A stretch of 39,816 nt of DNA from Escherichia phage BA14, in sequence record NC_011040.1; one strand, written 5' to 3'. This document shows positions 1 to 39,816 of this stretch, piece by piece (the stretch's first letter is position 1; every line of letters starts with the position of its first letter). Below the pieces are notes generated by a model. That model ran no database searches. It was given only the letters and a program-made list of their open reading frames with translations, and had not been told where the DNA came from. The position numbers were made by a program, and so were the translations under genes.

Positions 1-194
1 TCTCATAGTTCATACAAAGTGTTTACCCCCTATGGCCTCCTTCAGTTCCCCAAAGAGTGCCACCCCTTATGGTAACTTATGGTTTACTTAATGTCAATCA
101 TTATGTGAGACATTGGGTGAATCATTGGGATGACCACTAGATATAGTGTGTGGGAGACCTTATGACCACTATATGTAGTCCTCTCTGTGTCCCT
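1..194. repeat. Left direct terminal repeat (exact copy of 39623-39816)
   Basis: Bases 1-194 are identical to 39623-39816 when read from the sequence; T7-family genomes carry terminal direct repeats of this size. Confidence 0.95.
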
Positions 195-352: not shown

Positions 353-375
353 TTATACGACTCACTATTGAGAAT
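353..375 (+). promoter_or_regulatory. Phage RNAP promoter, T7 phiOL-like (cttatACGACTCACTATTgagaa)
   Basis: Matches T7-type promoter core -13 to -1; downstream initiating region is GAGAA rather than GGGAGA, so probably weak. Confidence 0.55.
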
Positions 376-862: not shown

Positions 863-988
863 GTACCGGAAACATACATAACGTTCTTGTGAGGTCACAC
901 ACTGAAAGTGACTCGGTGCTAACAAACCTGCACTTAAAGCTCTTTAACAATTTGGAATAGCACTCTTGAGATGGCGGCACTAGCGATT

Positions 989-1022
989 AACTCAAGGTGA
1001 CTCGAAAGAGAAGCCTTTATGA
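989..1022 (+). promoter_or_regulatory. Possible RNase III-type hairpin upstream of gene 0.3 (R0.3 position)
   Basis: aACTCAAGGTgactcgaaagagAAGCCTTt shares the AACTCAAGGT...GCCTT motif of the clearer hairpins at 6301, 6821 and 13571, but pairing is imperfect. Confidence 0.3.
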
Positions 1023-1049
1023 TAATCACTGCAACTGAGGAACCATCCC

Positions 1050-1508
1050 ATGATTCATACTAAAGAACAAGCTAACGTTTTCTATGTACTGGTAAGCGCA
1101 TTCCGTTCTAACCTCGACGATGAGGTCAACATGAGTCGCCACCGCCACATGGTTAACAACCTGCGCAACGCACCGGGTCTTTATGGTAGCGTTGAGTCTA
1201 CCGATTTAACTGGCTGTTACCGCGAAGCCATCTCAAGTGCACCGACTGAAGAGAAAACAATCCGTGTACGTTGTAAAGACAAGGCACAGGTTCTCAATGT
1301 CGCACGTCTGGCTTGTAACGAGTGGGAACAAGATTGCGTACTGGTCTATAAGTCACAGACTCACACGGCTGGCTTAGTGTACGCTAAAGGCATCGACGGG
1401 TACAAAGCTGAACGTCTGCACGGTAGCTTCCAGCGCATCCCTAAAGGTGCACCAATTCAAGGCTGCTTCACGGTTGACGAGTTCGGCAAATACTGGCAGG
1501 TAGCATAA
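1050..1508 (+). CDS. 0.3: S-adenosylmethionine-cleaving anti-restriction protein (T3 gene 0.3-type SAMase/SAM lyase)
   Basis: 152-aa ORF with RBS GAGG; sequence closely matches my recollection of T3 gp0.3 and is unrelated to T7 Ocr; first gene after the early promoters. Confidence 0.8.
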   Translation: MIHTKEQANVFYVLVSAFRSNLDDEVNMSRHRHMVNNLRNAPGLYGSVESTDLTGCYREAISSAPTEEKTIRVRCKDKAQVLNVARLACNEWEQDCVLVYKSQTHTAGLVYAKGIDGYKAERLHGSFQRIPKGAPIQGCFTVDEFGKYWQVA

Positions 1509-1509
1509 C

Positions 1510-1707
1510 ATGGTCGCACTCTTTGTAATCACAATGTACGCTCTGATTGGGGCGTACTTCCTAAGAGACTTCCGCAAGGGTCTCAAGGTACACAAGGCTA
1601 ACTTCTCGCACTTGAAGTATGGCTTTCTACCACGATTCACAGTCCGTGAACGCAACGGGCGCTTTAAGGCTAACAAGGTTGGTATCTTCTATGTTGCAAC
1701 ACATTAA
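1510..1707 (+). CDS. Small early membrane protein, hypothetical (gene 0.4-0.6 interval)
   Basis: 65-aa ORF beginning 2 nt after the gene 0.3 stop; N-terminal hydrophobic helix (VALFVITMYALIGAYFL) then a basic tail; weak RBS. Confidence 0.45.
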   Translation: MVALFVITMYALIGAYFLRDFRKGLKVHKANFSHLKYGFLPRFTVRERNGRFKANKVGIFYVATH

Positions 1708-1811: not shown

Positions 1812-2912
1812 ATGAACTACACCGACATTCAGGCACGTCTGGCAATCATCAAGTCCCTCCCGATTAGCGAACTGGACAAGCGCCAGACTCTTCTGGTTGC
1901 ACTGGCTGCTGACATCGTGAACGGTGAGACAAGCGATGGCAACGACACTGAAGGCTCAAATGGCTTGGAGTATCAGGACTGGTGGAACACCTTGGGCGCT
2001 CTCATGCGTGATGCAGGTTTCCGCATGTTGGGTAATGGTCACTTCAGTGCGGCCTACTCGCACGAAATGTTACCGGGCCGAGTCATCAAGGTTGGCTTTA
2101 AGAAAGAGGATTCAGGCGCAGCATACACTGCATTCTGTAGGATGCACCAAGGCCGAGCGGGTATCCCTAACGTCTATCACGTAGCACGTCATGCAGGTTG
2201 CTATACGGTTGTTCTTGACAAGCTGGTAGCATGTGACCGCGATAATTATGACCATGAGGTATACGCTGACCTCGCACGTTACTTTGTGGAGTCGGATTGC
2301 CATGACGCAAGCGACTTTGCACCGGGTGACTACGAGTTCATTGAGACCTGCCAGCTTATCCGCAAGTTCTTCAAAGGGATTGCATCGTTTGACATGCACA
2401 GCGGGAACATTATGTTCTCTGAAGATGGCACACCATACATCACTGACCCGGTTAGCTTCTCACATGACCGTGAACGTGAGGACGGCTTCCCTCTGGACCC
2501 GGATGCACTGATTGCCGAGGTCGAGGCAATAGCTAACGAGCGCATGATTGAACGTTGTCGCAACCGCAAGGCCAAGCGTGACCCTAACGGAACCTTTCAG
2601 GTTAACCACAAGGCCGCAATGAAACGCCGCAAGCGCAACCGTAAGCTGCGTGCCAAACGTGGTGCCGAGGTTGCACAGCACTTTGTACAGCGTAGACATG
2701 AACAAAAGCAGGAACTAAGGGACGCTATGAGGGCGCAAGATTGGATGGGTGCGCACAACTGGCACAACATGTGGTTACACAACAACAATGCAGACGTAAT
2801 CATGATTGACAAGGTGAAAGCCTTTGAGTGGAAACAGGCAGAACGCATGGCTCTTATGCAATGCCGCTCACTTCCAATCGACAAGTTACTTGACGCACAA
2901 CTGCAAGGCTGA
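1812..2912 (+). CDS. 0.7: Serine/threonine protein kinase, host shutoff (gp0.7)
   Basis: 366 aa; conserved blocks GNGHFSAAYSH, RVIKVGFKKEDSGAAYTAFCRM, HSGNIMFS and YITDPVSFS match T7 gp0.7 as I recall it. Confidence 0.9.
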   Translation: MNYTDIQARLAIIKSLPISELDKRQTLLVALAADIVNGETSDGNDTEGSNGLEYQDWWNTLGALMRDAGFRMLGNGHFSAAYSHEMLPGRVIKVGFKKEDSGAAYTAFCRMHQGRAGIPNVYHVARHAGCYTVVLDKLVACDRDNYDHEVYADLARYFVESDCHDASDFAPGDYEFIETCQLIRKFFKGIASFDMHSGNIMFSEDGTPYITDPVSFSHDREREDGFPLDPDALIAEVEAIANERMIERCRNRKAKRDPNGTFQVNHKAAMKRRKRNRKLRAKRGAEVAQHFVQRRHEQKQELRDAMRAQDWMGAHNWHNMWLHNNNADVIMIDKVKAFEWKQAERMALMQCRSLPIDKLLDAQLQG

Positions 2913-2985: not shown

Positions 2986-5637
2986 ATGACTAACGTAATC
3001 AACGCACCAAAGAATGACTTCTCTGACATCGCTAATGCAATCCAGCCGTACAACATTCTGGCTGACCATTACGGTGCACAGCTTGCAGCTACGCAGCTTG
3101 AGTTGGAGCATGAAGCTCACACTGAGGGCGAGAAGCGTTTCCTTAAGGCGATGGAACGTCAAATCAAAGCGGGTGAGTTCGGTGATAACGCAGTGGCTAA
3201 ACCGCTCCTGTCATCCCTCGCACCAAAGTTCATCGAAGCGTGGAACACTTGGTTCACTGAAGTTGAAGCGAAGCGTGGCAAGCGTCCAGTGGCCTACAAT
3301 CTGGTACAGAAGGTTGCACCCGAAGCGGCTGCTTTCATCACACTTAAGGTCACACTCGCTTGCTTGACGAAAGAAGAGTTCACCAACCTGCAATCAGTCG
3401 CTACTAAGATTGGTCGTAGCATTGAAGATGAACTGCGTTTCGGTCGCATCCGTGACGAAGAAGCGAAGCACTTTAAGAACCACGTACAGGAGGCACTGAA
3501 CAAGCGCGTTGGTATCGTCTACAAGAAAGCATTCATGCAAGCCGTAGAAGGCAAGATGTTAGACGCTGGTCAACTGCAAACCAAGTGGACTACATGGACA
3601 CCTGAAGAATCAATTCACGTTGGTGTGCGCATGTTGGAACTGCTCATCGGGTCTACTGGTCTCGTTGAGTTACACCGACCGTTTGCTGGTAACGTTGAGA
3701 AGGATGGCGAGTACATTCAACTGACCGAACAATACGTTGACCTGTTATCTAAGCGTGCTGGTGCACTGGCTGCAATTGCTCCGATGTACCAACCATGTGT
3801 AGTTCCTCCGAAGCCTTGGACGAGTCCGGTCGGTGGTGGCTATTGGGCTGCTGGTCGCAAGCCTCTCTCTCTGGTTCGCACTGGTAGCAAGAAGGGACTT
3901 GAGCGTTACAACGATGTGTATATGCCTGAAGTTTACAAGGCGGTGAACATCGCACAGAATACTCCTTGGAAGATTAACAAGAAGGTTCTGGCAGTGGTCA
4001 ACGAGATTGTGAACTGGAAGCATTGCCCGGTTGACGATGTACCTGCTCTCGAACGTGGTGAACTGCCTATCAAACCTGAAGACATCGACACGAACGAAGC
4101 GGCTCTGAAAGCGTGGAAGAAAGCGGCCTCCGCAATCTATCGCAAAGAGAAAGCACGAGTTTCTCGCCGCATGAGCATGGAGTTCATGTTAGGTCAGGCC
4201 AATAAGTTCGCACAGTTCAAAGCTATCTGGTTCCCGATGAATATGGACTGGCGCGGTCGAGTGTATGCGGTCCCAATGTTTAACCCGCAAGGCAACGACA
4301 TGACCAAAGGCTTGCTGACGCTCGCTAAAGGTAAACCAATCGGTGTCGATGGGTACTACTGGCTGAAGATTCACGGTGCTAACACTGCTGGTGTGGACAA
4401 GGTGGACTTCGCTGAACGTATCAAGTTCATTGATGATAACCATGAGAACATCATGAGCGTTGCGGCTGACCCTATCGCTAACACTTGGTGGGCTGAACAA
4501 GATTCTCCGTTCTGCTTCCTCGCATTCTGCTTTGAGTATGCAGGAGTCCAGCACCACGGGATGAAATACAACTGCTCTCTTCCGCTGGCGTTTGATGGTA
4601 GCTGCTCCGGTATTCAGCACTTCTCCGCAATGCTTCGTGATGAAATTGGTGGTCGCGCTGTTAACTTACTGCCGAGCAAGGAAGTCCAAGACATCTACCG
4701 CATCGTAGCGGAACGTGTCAACGAGATTCTGAAGCAAGATGTAATCAATGGCACCGACAACGAAGTCGAAATCGTGACCAATAAGGACACTGGCGAAATC
4801 ACTGAGAAGCTCAAGCTGGGAACTAAGGAACTGGCTGGTCAATGGTTAGCATACGGTGTTACTCGTAAGGTGACTAAGCGTTCCGTTATGACCTTGGCGT
4901 ATGGTTCCAAAGAGTACGGCTTCCGTGACCAAGTGCTAGAGGATACCATTCAGCCAGCTATCGACGATGGCAAGGGCTTGATGTTCACTCAACCGAACCA
5001 AGCGGCTGGCTACATGGCTAAACTGATTTGGAACGCAGTAACGGTGACAGTGGTCGCAGCGGTTGAAGCAATGAACTGGCTGAAGTCTGCGGCTAAACTT
5101 CTGGCTGCTGAAGTAAAGGACAAGAAGACCAAAGAGGTTCTCCGTAAGCGCTGTGCGGTACATTGGGTTACTCCTGATGGCTTCCCGGTCTGGCAGGAAT
5201 ACAAGAAGCCAGTACAGACCCGCTTGAACCTGATGTTCTTAGGCCAGATTCGTCTACAGCCTACCGTGAACACCAACAAGGATAGCGGAATTGACGCACG
5301 TAAGCAGGAGTCAGGCATTGCACCTAACTTTGTCCACTCAATGGATGGTAGCCACCTCCGCATGACCGTGGTGCGCTCCTATGAGGTCTACGGTGTGGAA
5401 TCGTTCGCACTGATTCACGACTCCTTTGGTACTATCCCTGCTGATGCTGGCAACCTGTTCAAAGCAGTGCGTGAAACGATGGTCAACACTTACGAAGAGA
5501 ACGATGTACTTGCAGACTTCTATGAGCAATTTGCTGACCAGTTGCACGAATCACAGCTTGACAAGATGCCTGAGATGCCAGCTAAAGGTTCTCTGGACCT
5601 GCAAGAAATCCTGAAGTCAGACTTTGCGTTTGCCTAA
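2986..5637 (+). CDS. 1: Single-subunit DNA-directed RNA polymerase (gp1)
   Basis: 883 aa, near-collinear with T7 RNAP as I recall it (e.g. AIWFPMNMDWRGRVYAV, FDGSCSGIQHFSAML, specificity-loop region QPTVNTNKDSGIDARKQESG, C-terminal FAFA). Confidence 0.98.
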   Translation: MTNVINAPKNDFSDIANAIQPYNILADHYGAQLAATQLELEHEAHTEGEKRFLKAMERQIKAGEFGDNAVAKPLLSSLAPKFIEAWNTWFTEVEAKRGKRPVAYNLVQKVAPEAAAFITLKVTLACLTKEEFTNLQSVATKIGRSIEDELRFGRIRDEEAKHFKNHVQEALNKRVGIVYKKAFMQAVEGKMLDAGQLQTKWTTWTPEESIHVGVRMLELLIGSTGLVELHRPFAGNVEKDGEYIQLTEQYVDLLSKRAGALAAIAPMYQPCVVPPKPWTSPVGGGYWAAGRKPLSLVRTGSKKGLERYNDVYMPEVYKAVNIAQNTPWKINKKVLAVVNEIVNWKHCPVDDVPALERGELPIKPEDIDTNEAALKAWKKAASAIYRKEKARVSRRMSMEFMLGQANKFAQFKAIWFPMNMDWRGRVYAVPMFNPQGNDMTKGLLTLAKGKPIGVDGYYWLKIHGANTAGVDKVDFAERIKFIDDNHENIMSVAADPIANTWWAEQDSPFCFLAFCFEYAGVQHHGMKYNCSLPLAFDGSCSGIQHFSAMLRDEIGGRAVNLLPSKEVQDIYRIVAERVNEILKQDVINGTDNEVEIVTNKDTGEITEKLKLGTKELAGQWLAYGVTRKVTKRSVMTLAYGSKEYGFRDQVLEDTIQPAIDDGKGLMFTQPNQAAGYMAKLIWNAVTVTVVAAVEAMNWLKSAAKLLAAEVKDKKTKEVLRKRCAVHWVTPDGFPVWQEYKKPVQTRLNLMFLGQIRLQPTVNTNKDSGIDARKQESGIAPNFVHSMDGSHLRMTVVRSYEVYGVESFALIHDSFGTIPADAGNLFKAVRETMVNTYEENDVLADFYEQFADQLHESQLDKMPEMPAKGSLDLQEILKSDFAFA

Positions 5638-5644
5638 CGGAATC

Positions 5645-5667
5645 TAATACGACTCACTATTGGGAGA
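5645..5667 (+). promoter_or_regulatory. Phage RNAP promoter TAATACGACTCACTATTGGGAGA
   Basis: Full 23-bp match to T7-family consensus except T at -1; transcript begins with a GGGAGACCC...GGGTTTCCC 5' stem-loop. Confidence 0.85.
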
Positions 5668-5727
5668 CCCTTGGGGTTTCCCTACTTTAAGATAACTTTA
5701 AGTTTAACTTTAAGAGGAAACATAATC

Positions 5728-6285
5728 ATGTTTACTTTCATCACTTCAGTAGGCGCTCTCGTATCAACCATTCTTGCAGCAACATACTATAATCGTTCAA
5801 AGGTATTTCTCACTAAGCTAATCAAAGAAGAGAAGAACTCTCATGCACTCAAAGAGAGACTTGAAGATGGATGGCGAGAGAAGCAGGAACTAGCTGGTCG
5901 AATCCGTACCTTAGAGTTCGAACAACAATATGACATGTCGAACCAACGAGAACTCATTGAGCGTCTACGTGCTGAGGCAGTGGAGTACCGCAAGGAACTT
6001 AAAGAAGCCAAGAAGATTATCCGTGAGTATACACACAGTGACATCACGTCTATCAAGTTTACTGCTCACATCCCGGATGCTGGATGGAAGCGCACTGAGT
6101 TCAAGCTGGGTCTTGGCTCGTGTGGTAAGCAAGTCACATGTCTACATTGGGTTGAACAAGCCGACCGCTATCTGCTGACACAGACGTGCACTGACGGTGA
6201 GCGCAAAGAGTTCACCTACTATAAGAAAGATGTAGCGGGTCGCATTGAGATTGCACGTAAGGTTGCAGACAATACGACTCACTAA
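5728..6285 (+). CDS. Hypothetical membrane-anchored coiled-coil protein (gene 1.05 position)
   Basis: 185 aa from ATG 5728 preceded by AGAGGAAAC RBS and a TTAACTTTA epsilon-like motif; N-terminal TM helix, charged heptad-rich middle, Cys-containing C-terminus; sits between gene 1 and gene 1.1. Confidence 0.7.
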   Translation: MFTFITSVGALVSTILAATYYNRSKVFLTKLIKEEKNSHALKERLEDGWREKQELAGRIRTLEFEQQYDMSNQRELIERLRAEAVEYRKELKEAKKIIREYTHSDITSIKFTAHIPDAGWKRTEFKLGLGSCGKQVTCLHWVEQADRYLLTQTCTDGERKEFTYYKKDVAGRIEIARKVADNTTH

Positions 6286-6292
6286 TGGGAAA
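6270..6292 (+). promoter_or_regulatory. Phage RNAP promoter cAATACGACTCACTAATGGGAAA (phi1.1-like)
   Basis: T7-family promoter core; the stop codon of the upstream ORF (6283-6285) lies inside it. Confidence 0.8.
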
Positions 6293-6300
6293 CACTGAAA

Positions 6301-6343
6301 GTTAAACTCAAGGTCATCACTTCTGGTGGCCTTCATGATTAAC
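6301..6343 (+). promoter_or_regulatory. RNase III-type processing hairpin (R1.1 position)
   Basis: Lower stem GTTAA/TTAAC, internal loop, upper stem AAGGTCAT/GTGGCCTT; same element recurs at 6821 and 13571. Confidence 0.6.
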
Positions 6344-6376
6344 TGTCATTAACTATACACACAAGGAAACAACATT

Positions 6377-6526
6377 ATGCGTACCAACTTCGAACCAACT
6401 ACCAAGCGCAACAACGTAATCAATGAACACGGTGCTGAATGGCAGGAACGTAAAGACCGCATGAAGAAACGCCACAAGACACAACGTGGCAACGCTGAGA
6501 AACGTAACTGGAAGGAGGCACTCTAA
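6377..6526 (+). CDS. 1.1: Small basic protein gp1.1
   Basis: 49-aa ORF (below the ORF-track cutoff) with RBS AAGGAAAC; highly basic, as for T7 gp1.1; stop overlaps the gene 1.2 start (TAATG). Confidence 0.6.
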   Translation: MRTNFEPTTKRNNVINEHGAEWQERKDRMKKRHKTQRGNAEKRNWKEAL

Positions 6527-7986: not shown

Positions 7987-8020
7987 GGTCAGACTTTCGG
8001 GTCTGGCCTTTTCGTGTTTC
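7987..8020 (+). terminator. Intrinsic terminator after ligase (TE position)
   Basis: GGTCAGAC-tttcgg-GTCTGGCC 8-bp stem followed by TTTTCGTGTTTC. Confidence 0.6.
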
Positions 8021-8049: not shown

Positions 8050-8130
8050 ATGCTATTTCTAATTATTGCTAGCGTTGCTGCCACGTTTGCCTTCGTTATC
8101 ATTGACGACAACTGCTGGCCTGATTGCTAA
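8050..8130 (+). CDS. Hypothetical 26-aa hydrophobic peptide
   Basis: ATG 9 nt after a GGAGG RBS; MLFLIIASVAATFAFVIIDDNCWPDC; lies between two phage promoters. Confidence 0.4.
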   Translation: MLFLIIASVAATFAFVIIDDNCWPDC

Positions 8131-8150
8131 TACGACTCACCTATGGAGGA
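8128..8150 (+). promoter_or_regulatory. Phage RNAP promoter-like sequence with altered -4 to -1 (TAATACGACTCACctatGGAGGA)
   Basis: Perfect -17 to -5 match, but four substitutions in the -4 to -1 melting region. Confidence 0.4.
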
Positions 8151-33626: not shown

Positions 33627-35594
33627 ATGGCTAATAAAATTTCCACTGTACGTACTTACCCGCTGAACGGTGCCGTGAACTTCACGATTACCTTTGAGTA
33701 TTTAGCACGTAAGTTCGTCCAAGTGACACTCATCGGGAAAGACCGTAAAGAGTTGGTTCTCAATCAGGACTATCGCTTTACCACTAAGACCCAAATCACA
33801 ACCTCCCGTACATGGACTGCCGCTGATGGTTATCAGATGATTGAGATTCGTCGATTCACATCTGCAACCGACCGTCTGGTTGACTTTGCTGATGGCTCAA
33901 TCCTTCGTGCGTATGACCTTAACATCTCACAGATTCAGACGCTGCACGTAGCTGAAGAGGCACGAGACCTAACTGCGGATACCATTGGTGTCAACAATGA
34001 TGGTCACTTGGATGCCCGTGGTCGTAAGATTGTGAACCTAGCGTTCGCCACCAGTGACTATGATGCTGTCCCACTGAAGCAAGTAAAAGAGCGCGAGTCG
34101 TCTGCTTGGAACGCTGTTAACAAGGCCAATGAACATGCTAACCGCTCTAACACTGAGGCTAACCGCTCGCGAGATGAAGCTGACCGTGCAAAACGTGAAG
34201 CTGACCGCTCAACCCAACAGGCAGGTGTCTCTACGGCACAGGCAGTTGAGTCCAAGAAGCAAGCTGACCGTTCCAACTCTGAGGCTAACCGAGCTAAAGG
34301 TTATGCTGATAGTATGACCGCAAGTGTCGCTGAGGCCAAGAAGCAAGCTGACCGTTCCAACTCTGAGGCCAATCGTGCCCGTGATGAGGCCAATCGTGCT
34401 GCCGGAGAAGTGACTAAGGCTGCTGCTGAGGTTGCCAAAGCTGCTGCACACGTTGCTACCGCTAAAGGTCATGCTGACCGCGCCAACACTGAGGCTAACC
34501 GTTCCAAAGGTGAGGCTGACCGTGCTAAGGCCGAGGCCGATAAGTTGGGCAACATGAATGGCCTAGCTGAGACAGTTGAGAAGGTTGATGCTCCAGATGT
34601 CTACTTCAAGCGTAATGTGATTGCTGGCCACCGTCTGGAGACTAAGGGTGGTTCCCATCTACACCCTAACGAGTTGAAATTGGTGAACACTAAGTCTCCT
34701 GACCAGCACTTTATCGTACAAGCATGGGGCACTGGTGACCCAAACAATAGGGCACAGGTGTTTGAACTTAGGGATAACTTAGGTCCATATGCGTTTTACA
34801 TTCAGCGAATGAAGAAGACTGACCAAACGTGGCAAATGAGTGTGAATGGCACTGTTAGCTGTGTATCCGTTGAGGCTGGTAAGGGGTTCATCTCTAAGGA
34901 CAGTACAGGCTCTATTCAAATGAAAACGTGGGGTGGCAGTTGGAACCAGTGGACATCAAATGCTGTTCCAGACATTCAGCATGACATCGAAGCCCAACAT
35001 GATGCGGCTTATCTGCTGGAGAGGGCAACCATTTGGGGCAAAGAGCACCTGTATGCTAAGTGCTTATACAACAATGGCGGTGGCGCTAACTTCTTTATCA
35101 GACATTATCTCCGTGGGACTTACTTCGACTTCAGGAGTGATGGTACTCTTAGTGGCTCGACTGGTTGGTATATCCCGCCAGATGGCAACCTGTACATCAA
35201 GAAATATGGACTGTATATTGATACGTGGGTTAACAATCGCTTGGGCGAACACGCCTACAATAAGGGCGAAGTCAACAACTTGGTCAATGGTCGTCTTACC
35301 GCTGGTCAAGGTGATGGTCGATATGTCCGCAAGAACGCTGGGTGGGCTGAGGTCTGGAAAGGCTCTGCTGGTGGTGGTGTCTCCGTAGGTCTCTCACAGG
35401 ATGTCCGATGGAGAACTATCTGGATTCAAACTCAAGGACGCTGGAACCCGGTTCAGATTGGCGATAACGGGCCATACTACATCTCTTCTATGGGTGGGTG
35501 GCTACAGTTTACAATCTCCAACAACGGGAGAACTTTCCGAAATGATGCTGACCGTAGTTCTGTACCTACGAGAATCTTAGTTCAAAACCAATAA
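33627..35594 (+). CDS. 17: Tail fiber protein (gp17)
   Basis: 655 aa; N-terminal ~150 aa and C-terminal ~90 aa match T7 gp17; central coiled-coil region is repeat-expanded. Confidence 0.95.
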   Translation: MANKISTVRTYPLNGAVNFTITFEYLARKFVQVTLIGKDRKELVLNQDYRFTTKTQITTSRTWTAADGYQMIEIRRFTSATDRLVDFADGSILRAYDLNISQIQTLHVAEEARDLTADTIGVNNDGHLDARGRKIVNLAFATSDYDAVPLKQVKERESSAWNAVNKANEHANRSNTEANRSRDEADRAKREADRSTQQAGVSTAQAVESKKQADRSNSEANRAKGYADSMTASVAEAKKQADRSNSEANRARDEANRAAGEVTKAAAEVAKAAAHVATAKGHADRANTEANRSKGEADRAKAEADKLGNMNGLAETVEKVDAPDVYFKRNVIAGHRLETKGGSHLHPNELKLVNTKSPDQHFIVQAWGTGDPNNRAQVFELRDNLGPYAFYIQRMKKTDQTWQMSVNGTVSCVSVEAGKGFISKDSTGSIQMKTWGGSWNQWTSNAVPDIQHDIEAQHDAAYLLERATIWGKEHLYAKCLYNNGGGANFFIRHYLRGTYFDFRSDGTLSGSTGWYIPPDGNLYIKKYGLYIDTWVNNRLGEHAYNKGEVNNLVNGRLTAGQGDGRYVRKNAGWAEVWKGSAGGGVSVGLSQDVRWRTIWIQTQGRWNPVQIGDNGPYYISSMGGWLQFTISNNGRTFRNDADRSSVPTRILVQNQ

Positions 35595-39622: not shown

Positions 39623-39816
39623 TCTCATAGTTCATACAAAGTGTTTACCCCCTATGGCCTCCTTCAGTTCCCCAAAGAGTGCCACCCCTTATGGTAACTT
39701 ATGGTTTACTTAATGTCAATCATTATGTGAGACATTGGGTGAATCATTGGGATGACCACTAGATATAGTGTGTGGGAGACCTTATGACCACTATATGTAG
39801 TCCTCTCTGTGTCCCT
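39623..39816. repeat. Right direct terminal repeat (exact copy of 1-194)
   Basis: Identical to bases 1-194. Confidence 0.95.

Follow-up and report, generated by a model that had tools for sequence, protein, structure and literature searches.

The phage BA14 combines an S-adenosylmethionine (SAM) lyase from the family of T3 gp0.3 with T7-like promoters and an RNA polymerase (RNAP) whose specificity residues are T7-like. Our comparison indicates that this combination is, with high probability, the inherited layout of the genus Berlinvirus, to which BA14 belongs, and not a recent hybrid of T3 and T7. The window analysed here is the whole stretch of 39,816 nucleotides in the record NC_011040.1.

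The window starts with a left direct terminal repeat at positions 1..194, and an exact copy of it is found at 39623-39816. The exact 194-bp repeats at both ends show that the window is the complete linear genome in its natural orientation. Terminal repeats of similar length are annotated in Kvp1 (194 bp) and in FE44 (193 bp). The best relatives in a megablast search were the Berlinvirus phages Kvp1, 285P, FE44, vB_CECAV_058, PYPS50, PhiV-1 and others, and the taxonomy lines in the records of the nearest relatives read Berlinvirus. In the early 8 kb, BA14 and the Berlinvirus records were 85-94% identical in nucleotides, and in the following 25 kb 90-95% with a coverage of 94-97%, whereas T7 and T3 reached only 66-78%. 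The comparison with the genomes of the T7 group, which had been proposed as a check of a mixed origin, thus returned an ordinary Berlinvirus at 90-95% nucleotide identity. Because of this identity to the genus records, and because its RNAP is 96.5-99% identical to others within a genus clade of 100% bootstrap, BA14 is the complete genome of a T7-like Berlinvirus phage (Studiervirinae). Since the genome around gene 0.3 is only about 90-95% identical to the relatives, BA14 represents a further strain or species of the genus. It does not have the marks of Teetrevirus, the T3 branch: no CCCTCACTA-type promoters were found, and the RNAP has an N where T3 has D749.

Gene 0.3 extends from 1050 to 1508 on the plus strand and was assigned from the open reading frame and from BLASTP, Pfam and PDB matches to a SAM lyase (SAMase) of 152 amino acids. 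The original prediction had assigned the product to the T3 SAMase type and not to Ocr, and the alignments bore this out. In BLASTP, gp0.3 of BA14 was 90.1% identical to T3 gp0.3 over 151 amino acids with a significant E value of 6e-108, whereas T7 Ocr gave no match at E <= 10 when gp0.3 itself was the query. The protein matched the Pfam family PF23780 (S-AdoMet_lyase) with E 8e-44 and a score of 149 bits (cutoff 28) over the profile positions 1-132 of 133. The solved T3 SAMase chains 7OCK_L/8BB1 were matched with E 5e-92. Ocr of T7 sits in the same slot and has the same purpose, namely that type I restriction and BREX are neutralised early. However, Ocr acts by DNA mimicry and has no sequence similarity to gp0.3, whereas gp0.3 of BA14 would act by SAM depletion.

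The functional residues were followed in an alignment of eight gp0.3 sequences, from BA14, T3, phiYeO3-12, Kvp1, three divergent Berlinvirus alleles and K11. The residues E67, E68, Q94, D95, G55, I2, T4, K5, A8 and N9 were invariant, and Y57 was read in all eight rows. In the T3 SAMase, E68, Q94 and D95 were mutated to kill the enzyme, and G55 and Y57 of the T3 family were taken as the equivalents of G56 and Y58 in Svi3-3 (residue roles in both cases from bioRxiv 10.1101/2023.02.27.530186 and PMC7877911). The N-terminal tail of T3 gp0.3 contacts the host SAM synthetase MetK with the residues M1, I2, F3, T4, K5, A8 and N9 (bioRxiv 10.1101/2023.02.27.530186, PMC7877911, PMC8406200), and all of these are kept in BA14 except for F3, which is changed to H. 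An internal in-frame ATG with GAGG just before it is located at 1131..1133 (plus strand) and encodes Met28. In T3, gene 0.3 is annotated with '982..1359 in-frame internal initiation', which is codon 28 and the same codon as Met28 of BA14. In the alignment M28 was kept in the T3 alleles and in those of class A, which are described below.

Taken together, gp0.3 of BA14 resembles T3 gp0.3 in E68, Q94 and D95, in most of the MetK-binding N-terminus, in the internal Met28 and in its site 3' of the host promoters. It differs by 15 substitutions in the 151 aligned residues, among them F3H and P7Q in the N-terminal tail. The two genes share only about 80% of their nucleotides (pS 0.61), and the T3 phage uses T3 promoters whereas BA14 has T7-like ones. 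Could the protein nevertheless have drifted to another main role, either as an inhibitor of MetK only or for the degradation of SAM-AMP, the signal of type III CRISPR? When the catalysis of the T3 SAMase is abolished, part of its anti-BREX activity persists via MetK binding (bioRxiv 10.1101/2023.02.27.530186), and phage SAM-AMP lyases with a PII-fold that are related to the SAM lyases do exist (PMC12255297). However, the SAM-AMP lyase that has been described is a distinct and distant protein (PMC12255297), the T3 residues for SAM binding and catalysis are all unchanged in BA14, and the protein shares 90% of its residues with the characterised T3 enzyme. We consider such a change of role very improbable and regard gp0.3 of BA14 as a SAM lyase of the T3 type with predicted enzymatic activity, MetK binding and anti-defence function.

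Upstream of gene 0.3, a consensus scan detected two putative sigma-70-type promoters on the plus strand, TTGACT-17-TAGTAT at 595-623 and TTGACA-18-TAAGAT at 685-714. Their positions are analogous to those of the A1-A3 promoters in T7 and T3. More TTGAC(T/A) boxes were noticed by eye with starts at 461 and 833. A Shine-Dalgarno sequence GAGGA was read at 1037..1041 (plus strand), 8 nt 5' of the ATG at 1050. An RNase III hairpin 5' of gene 0.3, equivalent to R0.3, did not stand out in the fold of 960-1049, which had a z of -1.14, and 28 of 200 shuffled sequences folded as well. Gene 0.3 is followed on the plus strand by a homologue of gene 0.6 at 1510..1707, detected as an open reading frame of 65 amino acids that is 63% identical to T3 gp0.6 by comparison, and by the gene 0.7 protein kinase at 1812..2912, with 366 amino acids and about 52-54% identity to gp0.7 of T3 and T7. 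A TE-like early terminator on the plus strand, a hairpin with a T-run after gene 1.3 at 7987..8018, delimits the early region that the host transcribes. A rho-independent terminator is annotated at the equivalent place in Kvp1.

From this arrangement, the host RNA polymerase would start at the sigma-70-type promoters and read genes 0.3, 0.6, 0.7 and 1 and on to gene 1.3, until it stops at the TE-like site at 7987-8018. The gp0.3 protein would be made first, and by homology to T3 it would convert SAM to methylthioadenosine (MTA) and homoserine lactone. The cleavage of SAM is a unimolecular lyase reaction (PMC7877911). The N-terminal tail of gp0.3 would in addition bind and inhibit MetK, as described for the T3-type SAMase (PMC8406200; bioRxiv 10.1101/2023.02.27.530186). 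The depletion of SAM would then disarm the SAM-dependent defences, type I restriction-modification and BREX, before the remaining phage DNA has entered the cell, and the phage RNAP would take over from 12-16 T7-like promoters.

The phage promoters were analysed by a core search. The sequence GACTCACTA was found in 12 copies in BA14, all on the plus strand, against 0.55 copies expected by chance. Ten of these 12 strong sites read CGACTCACTA with a C at -12, and the sites at 8020 (AGACTCACTA) and 9069 (GGACTCACTA) diverge at this position. G-11 and A-10 were present in all 12. A phiOL-like promoter, TTATACGACTCACTATTGAGAAT, is located at 353..375 and the promoter phi1.05 at 5645..5667, where TAATACGACTCACTATTGGGAGA equals the 23-bp consensus. 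The other strong promoters start at 6270, 6796, 8020, 9069, 18158, 20748, 21740, 26217, 33556 and 39073. The sequence TAATACGACTCACTATTGGGAGA is identical to phi1.05, phi1.1 and phi1.3 as annotated in Kvp1. Compared with the class II/III promoters of T7, the BA14 consensus is the same from -17 to -2 but has T and not A at -1. In the Berlinvirus consensus the T at -1, where T7 and T3 have A, is found in 11 of the 12 BA14 sites, and -2 is T or A.

When the T3-type promoter 19-mer was used for the search, no match was obtained in BA14 at up to 3 mismatches, and CCTCACTA, also a T3-type search, occurred at chance-level frequency. A scan with a position weight matrix (PWM) added four weaker candidate promoters, of which 10828, 12791 and 13625 have AACTCACTA and the fourth, at 8128, has a 1-bp insertion. 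This fourth candidate, TAATACGACTCACCTATGGAGGA at 8128-8150, has a promoter-like core with one inserted base and follows the phi1.5-like site at 8020 at a distance of about 100 bp; it could be a weak promoter or one in decay. The original prediction that all phage promoters are of the T7 type was right for the 12 strong sites, none of which is T3-type, but the word 'all' slightly overstates the case in view of the four weaker candidates and the two variants at -12. Nine other Berlinvirus early regions were scanned (P483 and P694 left out), and each contained 3-5 CGACTCACTA sites and no CCCTCACTA.

Gene 1 at 2986..5637 (plus strand) encodes the single-subunit RNA polymerase of 883 amino acids with matches to PF00940 and PF14700. 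The polymerase was 76.4% identical to T7 RNAP, 75.1% to T3 RNAP and 96.5-99% to the Berlinvirus RNAPs, whereas the T3 and T7 enzymes are 82.2% identical to each other. The comparison with the T3 and T7 enzymes, suggested as a check along with the original prediction, therefore did not place BA14 in the T7 branch. For both gp0.3 and RNAP, neighbour-joining trees of 12-14 taxa were calculated. In the RNAP tree, rooted with K11, the Berlinvirus clade had 100% bootstrap and was the sister of a clade of T3, YeO3-12 and T7 (80%). Since the latter clade excludes BA14, the possibility that BA14 has a T7-branch (Teseptimavirus) polymerase was ruled out.

The residues 735-770 with the specificity loop inside, VWQEYKKPVQTRLNLMFLGQIRLQPTVNTNKDSGID, are encoded at 5188..5295 (plus strand), and the codon of N748 is at 5227-5229. 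Of the 36 positions in this stretch, from V735 to D770, 4 are different between BA14 and T7 and 9 between BA14 and T3. The residues R746, N748, R756 and Q758 are the same as in T7, where they are the base-contacting specificity residues. BA14 reads TRLNLMFLGQIRLQ, in which TRLNLMF matches T7 (R746, N748) at the place where T3 has KRLDMIF; the D in the T3 motif is known to switch the promoter recognition at -10/-11. The resemblance to T7 had been predicted from the 20-mer QPTVNTNKDSGIDARKQESG. This 20-mer is present in BA14, and the four residues named above are indeed T7-like. However, QPTVNTNKDSGIDARKQESG itself does not tell T7 from T3 because it has 3 differences from either of them, and the discriminating residues are just upstream.

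BA14 has the features of the T7-type promoter system on both sides, the core CGACTCACTATA with G-11 and A-10 in the DNA and N748, R746, R756 and Q758 in the polymerase. To judge from the sites and these residues, BA14 would use the promoters described here and its polymerase would prefer T7-type templates. As the Berlinvirus RNAPs are the sister group of the T3 and T7 clade, the T7-like core together with N748 is most simply read as an ancestral state that was altered in the T3 lineage, and not as a 'T7 module'. The T7-like core could also have originated twice independently, in T7 and in Berlinvirus.

The divergence of gene 0.3 from T3 was compared with that of the other genes. Among the BA14 proteins, gp0.3 is the most T3-like with 90% identity, followed by gp8 (83%), gp19 (82%), and gp3 and gp5.7 (81% each), and the flanking gp0.6 and gp0.7 reach 63% and 52%. 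The synonymous divergence gave another picture. Between BA14 and T3, the pS of gene 0.3 was 0.607 +/- 0.048 (Nei-Gojobori), and 22 other genes ranged from 0.525 (10A) to 0.891 (gene 3). The pN of gene 0.3 to T3 was 0.086, the lowest in the genome. Since the pS is ordinary and the pN the lowest, the 90% identity of gp0.3 reflects strong purifying selection and not a recent import. A recent import of gene 0.3 from the T3 lineage was ruled out because its pS is within the backbone range. At the nucleotide level, the 0.3 region was 77% identical to T3 over 600 nt, compared to 66-78% elsewhere. The synonymous sites are near saturation at a pS of about 0.6-0.7, such that the values do not date events older than about the genus split.

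A phage of the genus Przondovirus, the Klebsiella phage NL_ZS_1 (MT813140.1; gene 0.3 at 4801-5259), was used as a positive control. Its gp0.3 is 96-97% identical in amino acids to those of T3 and phiYeO3-12. The pS of its gene 0.3 to T3 and YeO3-12 was 0.18-0.26, whereas the pS of its RNAP was 0.67-0.68. The RNAP of NL_ZS_1 is 98% identical to that of K11, and the gp0.3 of K11 itself is only about 42% identical to that of T3. These values identify gene 0.3 of NL_ZS_1 as a clear case of a SAM lyase cassette that was recently transferred between genera. NL_ZS_1 and BA14 both carry a SAM lyase of the T3 type, with 87% identity between the two, on a backbone other than that of T3, but BA14 does not have the signal of a recent import.

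The gene 0.3 alleles of the genus fall into at least three deep lineages. Class A1 consists of BA14, Kvp1, 285P, FE44 and vB_CECAV_058 and grouped with T3 and YeO3-12 at 98% bootstrap in the gp0.3 tree. The gp0.3 of 285P and vB_CECAV_058 is 100% identical to that of BA14, and that of Kvp1 and FE44 is 99.3% identical. The A1 genes are 97.6-99.1% identical to BA14 in nucleotides, and in 285P and vB_CECAV_058 all of the differences are synonymous. In 285P, vB_CECAV_058, Kvp1 and FE44, 0.3 is also the first early gene, with the same 0.6, 0.7 and gene 1 flanks and the same promoter sequences. Class A2 with P483 and P694 is 82-85% identical to the BA14 protein. Class B, with PhiV-1, PYPS50, ErnstBeyeler and JSS2, was separate from A1 in the gp0.3 tree with 100% bootstrap and is 68-71% identical to the BA14 protein. 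Its amino acid change is about 3 times that of A1 from T3.

The history of the alleles differed from that of the backbone. In the RNAP tree the phages of class A and class B were interleaved. The pS between the A1, A2 and B lineages was 0.53-0.66, whereas the RNAP genes of these phages gave 0.22-0.42. Within A1 the reverse was observed, as the dS of gene 0.3 was 0.04-0.10 and more uniform than the RNAP dS of 0.24-0.35 in the same phages, which suggests a spread of the cassette. The allele pS above that of the backbone, the discordance of the two trees and the uniformity of A1 point to the 0.3 slot as an exchange hot spot, a recombination cassette whose alleles appear to be older than the genus backbone and to have been reassorted.

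These data would also fit a mosaic in which a Berlinvirus backbone acquired its 0.3 cassette from a T3-like (Teetrevirus) phage in an ancient exchange. The outlying 90% identity of gp0.3 to T3 and the grouping of class A with T3 speak for it, as do the allele divergence and the spread within A1, and NL_ZS_1 demonstrates that transfers of 0.3 between genera occur. However, the pS of 0.607 is no lower than that of genes 9, 10A, 17.5 and 19, and since gene 0.3 is at the level of the core genes, any transfer would have to go back roughly as far as the genera do. The adjoining gene 0.6 is also T3-like (63%). In addition, a tblastn search with class B in the phage collection found only 13 phage records of about 39-40.6 kb, of which at least 5 are confirmed Berlinvirus, and the next match was at 75%. 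A class B donor outside Berlinvirus was not found in this collection, so class B could equally be the odd, fast-evolving allele. Finally, the polymerase half of such a mosaic is wrong because the RNAP is outside the T7 branch. We consider the ancient acquisition from a T3-like phage unlikely and favour the inherited Berlinvirus layout. From the prediction that several branches of the T7 group contributed modules to BA14, the part that survives is the exchange of the 0.3 slot as a recombination cassette; a polymerase off the T7 branch, an ordinary pS and a combination found in every sampled Berlinvirus with a 0.3 gene do not agree with the rest.

It is possible, but rather unlikely, that old and functionally distinct alleles are shuffled among otherwise 98%-identical phages under long-term balancing or diversifying selection. 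The selective forces on the 0.3 alleles could be the MetK of different hosts or the escape from a defence that senses the SAM lyase.

A SAM lyase was present in all Berlinviruses compared except for Berlin. In this type phage, which infects Yersinia, the whole 0.3-0.6 block (corresponding to 1031-1785 of BA14) is absent and a 77-aa hypothetical ORF is found there. The Berlinvirus early region as a whole is hypervariable. The gp0.7 proteins are only 71-82% identical among Berlinviruses (pN 0.10-0.19) despite RNAPs at 96.5-99%, and the copy of gene 0.7 in ErnstBeyeler is shorter, with 307 amino acids. Escherichia phage P694 has another early-region insertion (5342-6508), in which genes 0.3 and 0.7 are separated by about 1.2 kb with additional small ORFs, one of them with 120 aa and annotated 'protein kinase'. 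Gene 1.05 (5728-6285, 185 aa) is also present in Kvp1, 285P and PhiV-1 and absent from FE44 and Berlin, and only its C-terminal 70 amino acids resemble T3 gp1.05 (47%). Outside the early region, the least conserved large structural gene is the gene 17 tail fibre (33627-35594) with an overall identity of 36-38% to the T3 and T7 fibres, which is expected of a host-range module.

The combination of a T3-type gene 0.3 with T7-like promoters is already known. For Kvp1 it was published in 2008 that the phage 'encodes T3-like Gp0.3, 0.6 and 0.7 homologs' and that the nearest counterparts of its phage promoters are those of Berlin (PMC2579914), and gp0.3 of BA14 is identical to deposited Berlinvirus proteins. 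The T7-like character of the Berlin-type promoters is shown in the present comparison. In the wider phage collection, homologues of the SAM lyase were found in 484 phage records and those of Ocr in 572, counted separately. The early region of K11 has a SAM lyase and no promoter core of the T7 or the T3 type, and Ocr is present in SP6 and K1F. The combinations in K11, SP6 and K1F show that the type of gene 0.3 is not tied to the promoter type across the Studiervirinae.

The RefSeq re-annotation of the records NC_011534, NC_015249, NC_022744 and NC_003298 calls gp0.3 a 'SAM-dependent methyltransferase' and gene 1 an 'N4-like RNA polymerase'. These labels mislead, as the first protein is a SAM lyase and the second a single-subunit RNAP of the T7-like kind. 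Beyond the correct annotation, the significance of our findings is small. On the basis of its predicted SAM lyase, BA14 should evade SAM-dependent defences such as type I restriction-modification and BREX, which is relevant to therapy or to the prediction of the host range. Since the type of gene 0.3 and the promoter specificity assort independently across the Studiervirinae, T7-like phages are poorly sorted by a simple choice of 'T3 versus T7'.
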